Virus record (IMG/VR): IMGVR_UViG_2563366803_000007
Location: 1 to 42,967 of that record
Direction: 5' to 3' (one strand)
DNA from: a virus
Lineage: Duplodnaviria; Heunggongvirae; Uroviricota; Caudoviricetes
DNA length: 42,967 nucleotides
Part shown: piece by piece, positions 29,780 through 39,321 of the stretch
Layout of the letters: each line of letters starts with the position of its first letter
Numbering within the stretch: position 1 is the stretch's first letter
Position numbers and translations under genes: made by a program
The notes under the pieces: generated by a model
Told to the model about the DNA's origin: nothing
Database searches by the model: none
The model's input: only the letters and a program-made list of their open reading frames with translations

Positions 29780-31156
29780 TCATACGTCAGCCCCTTGTGC
29801 ATATCGTCTGCCACGCGCAGCAGGTGCATTTGATGCTGTGCAAATCTGTCTGGCTTCATCCTGGTCACATGCAACAAAGTGTCCGTTACAGAACCGCTGG
29901 TAAACCGTACCAAGCGAGCCAAAACGGTTTTTCGTCACGATGATTTCAGCAAATGGCGCGGCGCTACTGTTCTCGTCATATACCGCTTCCCGATAGAGCA
30001 TGATGATTGAGTCTGCGTCCTGCTCAATGCTTCCTGAATCACGCAAATCTGCGTTTGTCGGGCGTTTGTTTGGTCGCTTCTCAACATCGCGCGAAAGCTG
30101 ACTCAGGGAGATAACCGGTGTTTTCAGGTCTTTCGCCATCGCCTTCAGGCTTCCGGAGATGTGAGCAATTGCGAGGTCGTTGCGATCTGCTTTCGGCTTC
30201 TCAATCAGGCCAAGATAATCCGCCATGATGAGTGACAGGTTTGGATTTTCCTGTTTGTGCCGTTCTGCGATTGAGCGTATTTCTTCGACCGATAACCGCG
30301 AGGCATCGACTACCCATACATCCAAATCTGCAAGCTGACTCATGCCGTTAGCAACGCGCGCCCAGCCTTCGTCATCCATCGATGCAGGATTTCGCAGCAC
30401 GCTAACCGACATCCTCCCGGCGTTGGCAATGCTTCGCTCTGCAATCTGCAATGCGCTCATTTCCATTGAGAAAATCAATACTCCGCGCCGGACGTCAGAA
30501 CCAGGAATAACGCGGCTTGCAACGCCTTCGGCAATCTTCAGCGCCAGTTCGGTTTTCCCCATGCCAGGACGGGCAGCGATTATCACCAGGTCTTCCGCGT
30601 TCATCCCTCCGGTGATGACATCAAGTTCTTCGATTCCGGTCTTCAGGGTATCTGACTCTTCTCCGTTCCTCAGACGCCTGTCAAGCGTGTCAGTGTAGTC
30701 AGTGATGATTTCCCCTAACCGTACAGGTTTAACCTCGTCACGGGGCTTTCTGATGGCTGAAAGACGTTTTACAAGCTCGTCCATCGCCTGACTCGATGCG
30801 TCGATGGTTCCGCTCTGAATTGGTTCACGCATTTCATCCATGATTTCCAGCACCAGACGGCGGTGATAGTTATCCGCGACCATTCCGGCATATCCCTTCA
30901 GGTTTGCGGCGCTCGGGCAGTTTTTGCTGGTCATCAGGATTGACGTGAAATGCTCCTCTCCGCACGCCTCGGCAACCATCAGCGCGTCGATTAGGTTTCT
31001 GTTTCTCGCCTGCTTGCGGATAACCTCGAAGGCTTTCCGGTAGAGCGGAATTGAAAACGCTTCCGGCTCTAGCGTTGCCAGAACGTCGCTGGCGGTTGGT
31101 GTTAATCCACCAATCAGCAGGCCACCGATAACGCTCGCTTCGATATCCTGTCTCAT
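29780..31156 (-). CDS. DnaB-type replicative helicase (P22 gene 12-like, 458 aa)
   Basis: Walker A GMGKT in [17 protein letters not shown]; DnaB-like C-terminal region. Confidence 0.85.
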
Positions 31157-32100
31157 GCAATCCCCCTGTCTGCAAACTTCCCTTCCCGAACTCCCGTTAA
31201 CGAGTCTTCTCTCAGCAGGTAATCAAAATCAGCCGTCCAGCCCGTGTCGTTGTCTCCGAAGTAAAACGGCTTGGCCTGATGCACAAACGCCCTGACATAC
31301 GCTCTGAAACCGTCCACGTTTGGCGTTTTCAGTTGCGGGATGATTTTCTTCAGGCGGCGTTTGCGTTTCTCGTTGACCGCAACAGCGTGTGGAAGTCTGT
31401 CACCGACTTCGGTGTTGTAGGCGTTCAGGAAGGATTCGTAGTCGATTCGTTCTGCCTTTCGACGTTCAGGTTTAACCTGCCCATCGCCTCCCCCATTGGG
31501 GGGTAGGGGGGTATTATTTATATTCTTGTTAATACCTTCTTGTTCATGATGTGCGGTTGTTTGTGCGGCTTCATGTGCGCTTTCATGTGCGGCATGCACT
31601 CTGAAAGCCGCGCCATTGCTGGCTTCGTCATGTGCGGCATCATGTGCGGTTGTTTGTGCGGCTTCATGTGCGGGTGAATCGTCCATTTTTTGAGCATATT
31701 CATGGTAATTTGTGATGGTAATCACACGACCTTTTTGCTTCTCTCCATCAATGGTGATCATCCCCTCTTTCACAAAAACCTGAAGCATCCGCTCAACCTG
31801 ATCACGGCTTGCTGGCTTGCCATGCCTGTCGCATAACTGAAGACCTAAATCAGCTGCTGTCACAACCAGTTGACCGGGTTGCAGATGCCATTCATGACCT
31901 TTGAAATTCGCTTTGTATGGCTTTCTGGCGGCATTCAGGAGAAGGTTTTCCCACAGGGTACGAAGATAAACATCTTTCGCCCATGACTGTTTCAGAATGC
32001 TCCGGTACAACGGAATGTAACCAGTTTTCTGGTTCTCCATCCTGTTGCTCCTGCGCTCGTGTGCGGCGCTGAAATCGTAGATTTTTGCTGTATTGCTCAT
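31153..32100 (-). CDS. Replication initiator (O / P22 gene 18-like, 315 aa) containing the origin iterons
   Basis: N-terminus [10 protein letters not shown] resembles lambda O (MTNTAKILNF); internal repeated HEAAQTTAH peptides encoded by iterons; upstream of helicase. Confidence 0.7.
31548..31673. repeat. Origin iterons: about eight copies of (C/T)ATGTGCGG at 12-bp spacing inside the O-like gene, next to a G-rich/AT-rich tract (31501..31540)
   Basis: Direct repeats read from sequence, arranged as two near-identical ~35-bp blocks. Confidence 0.7.
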
Positions 32101-32102
32101 AA

Positions 32103-32375
32103 CTACCTGCCTTGACGAAAGACCTTAAGAACATCGTTAAACTGACTTACGGATATGTCTTCTTTGAGCAGCTTTTCCAGAAATGCATTTGGAATGAACG
32201 TATATCCCTCCTCTTTTGGTAGAGACGGGAGCAACGTCCTTGCCTCAGCCTTCAGAAGCTCAGTTCTGGCAACTTTCACAAAAGAGATTTGAGTTCTTTC
32301 ATCAATGGAACGAAGGAAGCGCAAACGCTTAACTTCTTTGTGTGTATCAGGTGGATTAAAGCCTTTGTTTCGCAT
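32103..32375 (-). CDS. Hypothetical protein (90 aa) inserted between cII and the O-like gene
   Basis: ATG at 32373..32375 with GAGG RBS; in lambda, cII and O are separated by only about 30 bp. Confidence 0.5.
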   Translation of the reverse strand: MRNKGFNPPDTHKEVKRLRFLRSIDERTQISFVKVARTELLKAEARTLLPSLPKEEGYTFIPNAFLEKLLKEDISVSQFNDVLKVFRQGR

Positions 32376-32386
32376 ATAATTACCTC

Positions 32387-32456
32387 GCTGGATGTTGTTA
32401 AAATTCCATTTGTATTTGATCAGAACGCTCGGTCTTGCACACCGGGCGTTTTTTAT
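32387..32456 (+). ncRNA. oop: oop-like antisense RNA overlapping the 3' end of cII, with intrinsic terminator
   Basis: 3' region GATCAGAACGCTCGG...CCGGGCGTTTTTTATT resembles lambda oop from memory; perfect TATAAT at 32375..32380; 5' end approximate. Confidence 0.5.
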
Positions 32457-33022: not shown

Positions 33023-33039
33023 TTAGTACATGCAACCAT

Positions 33040-33103
33040 TATCACCGCCAGAGGTAAAATAGTCAACACGCACGGTGTTAGATATTTATCCCTTGCGGTG
33101 ATA
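33040..33103. promoter_or_regulatory. Right operator OR1-OR2-OR3 with divergent PR and PRM promoters
   Basis: OR1 TATCACCGCCAGAGGTA (33040..33056), OR2 CAACACGCACGGTGTTA (33064..33080), OR3 TATCCCTTGCGGTGATA (33087..33103), all lambda operator sequences. Confidence 0.9.
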
Positions 33104-33110
33104 GATTTAA

Positions 33111-33827
<717 letters not shown>

Positions 33828-39027: not shown

Positions 39028-39321
39028 ATGCCAGCGCCTCTGTATGGTGCGGATGACCCGCGCCGCTGTTCCGGCAATTCCGTATCGGAGGTGCTGGATA
39101 AATTCAGAAAAAACTACGATCGAATAATGTCTCTACCGCAGGAAACGAAAGAGGAAAAGGAATTTCGCCACTGCATATGGCTTGCAGAGAAAGAAGAGCG
39201 CGAGCGAATTTACCAGACATCAATCCGACCATTCCGCAAAGCCACATATACCCACTTCCCTGAAATTGACCCGCGCCTGCGTCATTACCGCTCACGCTAT
39301 GGCGCTATCAGTAATGACTGA
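39028..39321 (+). CDS. Hypothetical protein (97 aa), tentatively Abc2-like anti-RecBCD
   Basis: Size and position after erf as in P22; identity not verifiable here. Confidence 0.4.
   Translation: MPAPLYGADDPRRCSGNSVSEVLDKFRKNYDRIMSLPQETKEEKEFRHCIWLAEKEERERIYQTSIRPFRKATYTHFPEIDPRLRHYRSRYGAISND

Follow-up and report, generated by a model that had tools for sequence, protein, structure and literature searches.

In the lambda model, iterons and an A+T tract are located midway along gene O (PMC7466680, PMC3349717). The iterons, annotated at 39034-39118, are four 18-bp imperfect palindromes, spaced by 20-24 bp and located in the gene just past the domain recognized by the Phage_rep_O model; the A+T tract comes next, and is followed by a dyad (GTCAGAG...CTCTGAC). 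The module lies downstream of cII and is transcribed from pR, and O recruits the DnaB of the host via P. The initiators of phages phi80 (gp15) and HK97 (gp54) match the same Phage_rep_O model. In phi80 four annotated binding sites, palindromic, 15-16 bp long and spaced by 20-21 bp, occupy the same slot within the gene, and precede an A+T tract. According to a note in the HK97 record, P22 gene 18/12 represents the same module type as HK97 gp54/gp55. Iterons are found in plasmids as well, where direct repeats set beside an A+T-rich tract are read by winged-helix initiators of the RepA, RepE and pi kind. Plasmid iterons measure ~17-22 bp, are spaced by ~22 bp and lie outside the rep gene, and the Rep proteins carry two winged-helix (WH) domains.

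The DNA analyzed here (the window, a stretch of 42,967 bp) includes the early-right operon of a lambdoid prophage. The operon is on the minus strand, and the gene order is cI (33114-33827, plus strand), cro, cII, a 90-aa ORF, a 315-aa ORF and a 458-aa ORF. The replication module and its promoter are made up as follows:

33038-33066, minus strand: pR-like promoter, TTGACT-17-GATAAT, between cI and cro (consensus scan, 10 of 12 matches)
31153-32100, minus strand: O-like replication initiator gene, 315 aa, containing the array (Pfam Phage_rep_O; PHROG 345, 'replication initiation O-like')
31675-32100, minus strand: region coding for the predicted N-terminal winged-helix DNA-binding domain, aa 1-142 (AF2 model)
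29780-31156, minus strand: DnaB-type replicative helicase gene, 458 aa (DnaB_C, 2e-77; DnaB N-terminal domain, 4.6e-13; PHROG 19)

As in lambda, the module lies downstream of cII, and the pR-like promoter would drive cro-cII-O-helicase transcription across the predicted origin. In contrast to lambda, the module encodes a DnaB-type helicase of its own, the ATG of which overlaps the TGA of the initiator gene (ATGA, 31153-31156). Phage_rep_O (PF04492) matches aa 20-132 of the initiator (56.7 bits against a cut-off of 28.7, E 3.6e-15), and is the sole Pfam domain found in the protein. The locus departs from the iteron plasmid type (Rep_3, or RepA-RepE-pi) in this respect, and also because its units measure 12 bp and reside inside the gene. 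DNA ~98% identical is found in CUS-3, JEP4, Gally, Kapi1 and HF4s, where the two genes are annotated as O/replication protein and P/helicase. Identity with lambda amounts to 96% in the cII region, as far as 32405; beyond this point, the only similarity left is an island of 22 nt where O begins. The 90-aa ORF (32103-32375, minus strand) lies in the interval from cII/oop to O, which holds no gene in lambda. Its ribosome-binding site is a strong GAGG, and the product falls in PHROG 2519, of unknown function; Pfam gave no match, and the ORF is unannotated in CUS-3. A strong terminator-like hairpin followed by a T run (32422-32452, plus strand), antisense to the 3' end of cII, occupies the position of the oop RNA terminator of lambda.

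Anatomy of the array and flanking elements

The array includes eight units of 12 bp, each featuring an 8-bp core (ATGTGCGG on the plus strand, CCGCACAT on the gene strand), grouped into two blocks of four. Blocks and adjacent elements are listed in the direction of the gene:

31627-31674, minus strand: iteron block 1, first in gene direction, CCCGCACATGAA GCCGCACAAACA ACCGCACATGAT GCCGCACATGAC, aa 143-158
31594-31626, minus strand: 33-bp spacer, GAAGCCAGCAATGGCGCGGCTTTCAGAGTGCAT, aa 159-169
31546-31593, minus strand: iteron block 2, adjoining the A+T tract, GCCGCACATGAA AGCGCACATGAA GCCGCACAAACA ACCGCACATCAT, aa 170-185
31512-31545: A+T-rich tract of 34 bp, 27 of 34 residues A+T (79%), putative DNA-unwinding element
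31490-31511: candidate for a third element of the origin, made up of the GC dyad CCCCCA-t-TGGGGG (31490-31502) and another G6 run (31506-31511)

The preliminary description had reported about eight copies of the repeat at 12-bp phasing, arranged as two near-identical ~35-bp blocks adjoining a G-rich/AT-rich tract, and encoding repeated peptides of the initiator. All these features were found. The pitch is exactly 12 bp within either block, and the step from one block to the other is 45 bp, which is not a multiple of 12. The blocks look near-identical because 31 bp are repeated exactly at an offset of 93 bp (31549-31579 and 31642-31672). Read on the minus strand, the units keep to the codon frame and translate as (A/P)-A-H-(E/D) repeats, and one 10-residue peptide is encoded twice in the 315-aa ORF (aa 144-153 and aa 175-184). 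The tract next to block 2 is rich in A+T, and the G residues beyond it form two G6 runs, the former at 31498-31503.

The heptamer TGTGCGG occurs nine times in the window, against 6.75 copies expected from shuffles for the whole window on both strands. Seven of the copies are in the array (at 31550, 31562, 31586, 31631, 31643, 31655 and 31667), and the eighth unit, at 31574, reads TGTGCGC, so that all eight are comprised within 31550-31673. By arithmetic from the shuffles, ~0.02 copies would be expected by chance in these 124 bp. A scan of the array for YATGTGCGG identified four exact and four one-mismatch copies, every one on the plus strand. No second cluster of cores was detected elsewhere in the window by the TGTGCGG and YATGTGCGG scans. 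Outside the array, YATGTGCGG has 10 matches with at most one mismatch, compared to the ~19.5 expected for the whole window, and the iteron motif may be mildly avoided in the rest of the phage. A ninth exact TGTGCGG is located at 32060-32066, within codons 12-14 of O (AAH). It was considered as an extra O site and discarded: the copy is probably there by chance and does not follow the iteron type in relatives, because the same AAH N-terminus is found in S.Inf 5-2 along with a different core, and is missing from the relatives in Klebsiella and Yersinia.

Inverted repeats with both arms inside the array were not found, and a hidden dyad symmetry of the units was rejected on this ground. Since the sites lack dyad symmetry, the dimer-binding model of lambda is not simply transferable to this array. 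The 12-bp pitch is not forced by coding either, because the spacings of the palindromes in lambda, phi80 and HK97 are not multiples of three.

All 109 arrays with two blocks have a spacer of 33 bp. Approximately the first 22 nt (GAAGCCAGTAATGGCGCGGCTT) have been kept across all specificity classes, including those with unrelated cores, and recur in phage ENT47670 of Cronobacter; among close relatives, no part varies more than the second half. The spacer matched none of the consensus sequences tried. The possibility that it represents an inverted iteron was rejected, because the sequence is nearly unchanged in classes with unrelated cores.

In 30-nt windows the A+T tract reaches 73-77% A+T, and coincides with a local GC minimum (0.35-0.375). 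A 7-bp inverted repeat, GGTATTA (31510-31516)/TAATACC (31530-31536), overlaps the tract, its left arm beginning 2 bp outside, and has been kept in all close relatives.

The GC dyad is the equivalent of the lambda dyad. A tight dyad (stem of at least 6, loop of 4 at most, no farther than 80 nt past the last iteron) was seen beyond the array in 62% of the 37 module types; control windows taken from the same genes gave 6.8%. The equivalent places in L005, L006, L091-L124, L126 and L127 carry such a dyad in most types. The stems vary by type with compensatory changes, as CCCAC/GTGGG versus CCCGC/GCGGG, or ATTAAATAC/GTATTTAAT versus ATTAGATAC/GTATCTAAT. The dyad following the tract has the appearance of a structural element conserved among these origins, and compares with the 28-bp palindrome of lambda. 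Sites fitting the DnaA-box (TTWTNCACA) or the IHF (WATCAANNNNTTR) consensus were not found within thousands of bases of the origin.

On the strength of sequence comparisons, the array is very probably the replication origin of the lambdoid prophage, set where its own initiator gene codes for the linker, and the repeats are almost certainly the binding sites of the prophage's own initiator. The organization had been described as lambda-like. The likeness stands at the level of the module, as the sites lie in the gene just past the Phage_rep_O domain (the array spans aa 143-185, the DNA-binding domain ends at ~aa 136), and are followed by the A+T tract and then by the dyad. It does not extend to the architecture of the sites, because eight direct 12-bp units and a 33-bp spacer replace the four spaced palindromes of lambda. 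Origins in lambdoid initiator genes are textbook matter, and finding one at this place was therefore expected; the direct 12-bp-unit architecture is new, and the specificity seems its own.

The repeats could also be genuine O sites that serve mainly for control, either through autoregulation, titration/handcuffing or exclusion of related phages, initiation taking place elsewhere. A passage of PMC3401445 describes plasmid iterons as serving both initiation and control, and cloned lambda iterons inhibit rep-lambda phages (PMC3349717). Also in favor of control is the two-block design with its constant spacer. Yet, the A+T tract is found directly beside the array in every relative, and the dyad in the proportion of types given above, the window lacks a second core cluster, and the position of the array equals that of the functional lambda origin. 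We consider it very unlikely that control is the main role of the repeats.

Conservation of the cores and co-variation with the initiator

The analysis was extended to 80 near-identical and 36 diverse Enterobacterales prophage loci, from which 110 arrays of this type were parsed. Blocks have the 4+4 layout in 85 arrays and the 3+3 layout in 24, and units are invariably direct, with a pitch of exactly 12 bp. In the 184 units of 29 arrays, position 3, a third codon position, is always C (184/184), position 6, the third position of the Ala codon, is either A or G, and position 9 is T in 165 units. Position 1, a first codon position (P/A/T/S/G), carries 0.25 bit. The control is provided by conserved four-fold codons in the part of these loci encoding the N-terminal domain, which carry 0.52 bit on average at the third position, and 1.25 at the most. 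When 46 distinct near-identical arrays were compared, minority calls amounted to 0.28 per position in the cores, 1.91 in the inter-core segments, and 1.48 in the spacer. These figures argue for DNA-level selection on the cores, and the comparative data as a whole for a DNA-level function tied to the N-terminal domain. In three loci (L018, L060 and L065) block 2 has been partly overwritten by block-1-like units, and such gene conversion between blocks accounts for some of the homogeneity seen among the repeats.

The AF2 model of the initiator, built on 19 sequences only, has a mean pLDDT of 76.8, and 10-residue blocks over aa 31-140 average 70-93. The order of the elements (helix 44-56, three strands, helix 82-88, helix 99-111, beta wing 115-129) gives the N-terminal region the predicted fold of a winged helix-turn-helix, with helix 3 (aa 99-111) as the predicted recognition helix. 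In Foldseek searches against the PDB the best matches are all winged-helix DNA binders (MarR, CRP, CodY, RosR), though weak (E >= 0.01), and a sequence search of the PDB with the initiator retrieved no relative.

In the model, helix 3 has residue 100 in its second position, and this residue co-varies with the fifth base of the core, which may be either A or G. The base is uniform in 27 of the 29 scored arrays, L004 and L104 each having one off-type unit. By majority, 22 of the arrays are A-type and seven G-type, the counterpart of CCGCACAT in G-type sites being CCGCGCAT; two further arrays missed by the parser (L101 and L116) were classed by eye from their sequence, raising the G-type total to nine. 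The segregation is perfect, since D100 is found in 22/22 A-type and H100 in 9/9 G-type proteins. Correspondingly, aa 98-100 read SRD in the A-type and SRH in all nine G-type proteins. Residue 82 segregates just as perfectly, being A in 20 of the 22 A-type proteins (P in the other two) and S in 9/9 G-type. K95/E95 was dropped as a third co-varying residue, as L101 and L116 show V and I there. The co-variation could partly reflect shared ancestry, phylogeny being a partial confounder of the comparison; in two cases, G-type proteins are not much closer to one another than to A-type proteins.

Relatives with other cores, 46-52% identical, retain the two-block 12-bp layout, and differ at the start of helix 3:

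Helix 3 start SPQAV: core CGATGAAC
Helix 3 start SAKAV: core GTCGAA
Helix 3 start S(A/P)KQV: core GAGGTAAC
Helix 3 start SKQSV: core CCGRTACAC

Peptides encoded by other-core arrays, such as PDEPCDKPSD, VEGSDEPPVE and EVTKQVSNEV, are unrelated to the His-rich one, and this speaks against a repeat function at the peptide level. It has to be considered, in fact, that the repeats might represent nothing else than a low-complexity His/Ala-rich linker peptide, possibly metal-binding, duplicated by slippage and devoid of any cis-acting role as DNA. The units are codon-aligned and encode (A/P)-A-H-(E/D) repeats, and block conversion and changes in copy number (4+4, 3+3, one block) bear witness to repeat dynamics. 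Conservation, however, is the reverse of that expected for coding, third positions being fixed and first positions variable. Quite different peptides are accommodated in the same layout in relatives, and the synonymous choice between GCA and GCG is nearly uniform within each array and follows residue 100. The linker explanation is very improbable in view of these data.

HK97 provides a natural swap of the N-terminal half of the module. Its gp54 shares with the initiator the C-terminal domain (94% identity over aa 185-315, 124 of 132 residues), and the helicase region (gp55, 'similar to DnaB') is ~97% identical at the DNA level, the GC dyad and the gene order being also shared. In contrast, the N-terminal domain of gp54 is unrelated beyond the family level, and four unrelated ~19-bp palindromes (ATTAGCCGACTTGGCTAAT), spaced by 23, 24 and 20 bp, are found exactly at the place of the array. 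DNA similarity to HK97 stops at ~31529, a mosaic joint inside the A+T tract. It follows that N-terminal domain, array and the adjoining half of the A+T tract are transferred together, as a single unit. Association with different partners is documented by a Klebsiella phage, in which the same N-terminal domain and array are followed by a different C-terminal region, and then by a lambda P-type loader. The Klebsiella relative of the same N-terminal type bears the annotation 'replication initiation protein 15', and the tract that follows its iterons is almost that of phi80. The HK97 swap, the pairing of D100/H100 with A/G and the different starts of helix 3 concur in suggesting that the site sequence is matched to the N-terminal domain, which would act as a specificity module. 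The claim that iteron sequence and initiator specificity differ from those of lambda is supported by comparative data: the array has cores of its own, and the N-terminal domain co-varies with them.

That the main role of array and spacer is that of a 'boundary sequence' for recombination, promoting mosaic exchange of N- and C-terminal modules among initiator genes, is the least probable explanation, and can be given hardly any credit: the HK97 joint falls beside the array, one N-terminal type occurs with several C-terminal types, and many database copies are 'partial' and end at ~aa 146-211, but joints lie in or after the A+T tract rather than in the array, the cores are not usable as shared homology because they differ between specificity classes, and a boundary role would in any case be compatible with origin function.

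Short direct cores located just past a related N-terminal domain (25-32% identity) are found in Cronobacter phage ENT47670 and in Lactobacillus phage phiAT3 as well. In ENT47670 the TGTCCAA units number 3+3, and are accompanied by a spacer resembling the one here, an A+T tract and a dyad of 9 bp. In phiAT3 one block of five TGTCAATCAA units, plus scattered copies, is accompanied by a purine-rich tract, an 8-bp dyad and a DnaC-type partner. The pitch is 11 bp in both phages, versus 12 bp here. No description of either array was found in the literature.

Putative mechanism and distribution of the array type

If the array is the origin of the prophage, initiation may be envisaged as follows. The N-terminal winged-helix domain (aa ~29-136) would read the 8-bp core CCGCACAT through helix 3, and the O-like protein would occupy all eight sites, four per block with a pitch of 12 bp. 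The nucleoprotein complex thus formed would destabilize the neighboring 34-bp A+T-rich tract, and the C-terminal domain, of the HK97 gp54 type, would bring in the DnaB-type helicase of the phage, the gene of which comes next downstream. As in lambda, the process is probably helped by transcription of the gene from pR. Binding of O, unwinding, recruitment of the helicase and any stoichiometry are inferred only.

How O is accommodated on the sites is more speculative. Monomers might be arranged head to tail, the 12-bp pitch imposing an untwisting of the DNA. Bringing sites spaced by 12 bp into register would untwist the DNA by about half a turn per block, and this could help melting the A+T tract. 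We tentatively put forward, as a possibility that is rather doubtful, a mode of recognition unlike that of lambda for this branch of the O family, in which single winged-helix domains polymerize in head-to-tail order on 8-bp cores with a pitch of 11-12 bp, forming two lobes around the invariant 33-bp spacer, where a host factor or another surface of O would dock, and untwisting the DNA. Were this correct, the D100/H100-A/G pairing would represent a readable one-residue, one-base rule.

The array type has been identified in 286 of 5,426 complete E. coli genomes (~5%), and in prophages across Enterobacterales. The N-terminal domain occurs in ~48 records of Stx2a-converting phages. Searches by the motif string, and for the iterons of HK97, CUS-3 and phi80, retrieved no paper on this iteron type, which appears to be common yet unstudied. 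The arrays provide a natural series of matched initiator/site specificities, with several cores in one layout and a clean D/H-A/G switch. The series could be exploited to study the evolution of origin specificity and the replicon incompatibility of co-resident prophages, or to design orthogonal replicons. In annotation pipelines the gene carries only the label 'replication protein', and no origin is marked.

A Symbiopectobacterium MAG (L123) has one block and no spacer, and the copy of Xenorhabdus ehlersii (L092) is truncated after the spacer. Many database copies of the initiator (among P0001-P0074) are 'partial', 146-211 aa long, and their contigs stop at the array or just past it, which suggests that short-read assemblies often break at the repeat or at the mosaic joint.
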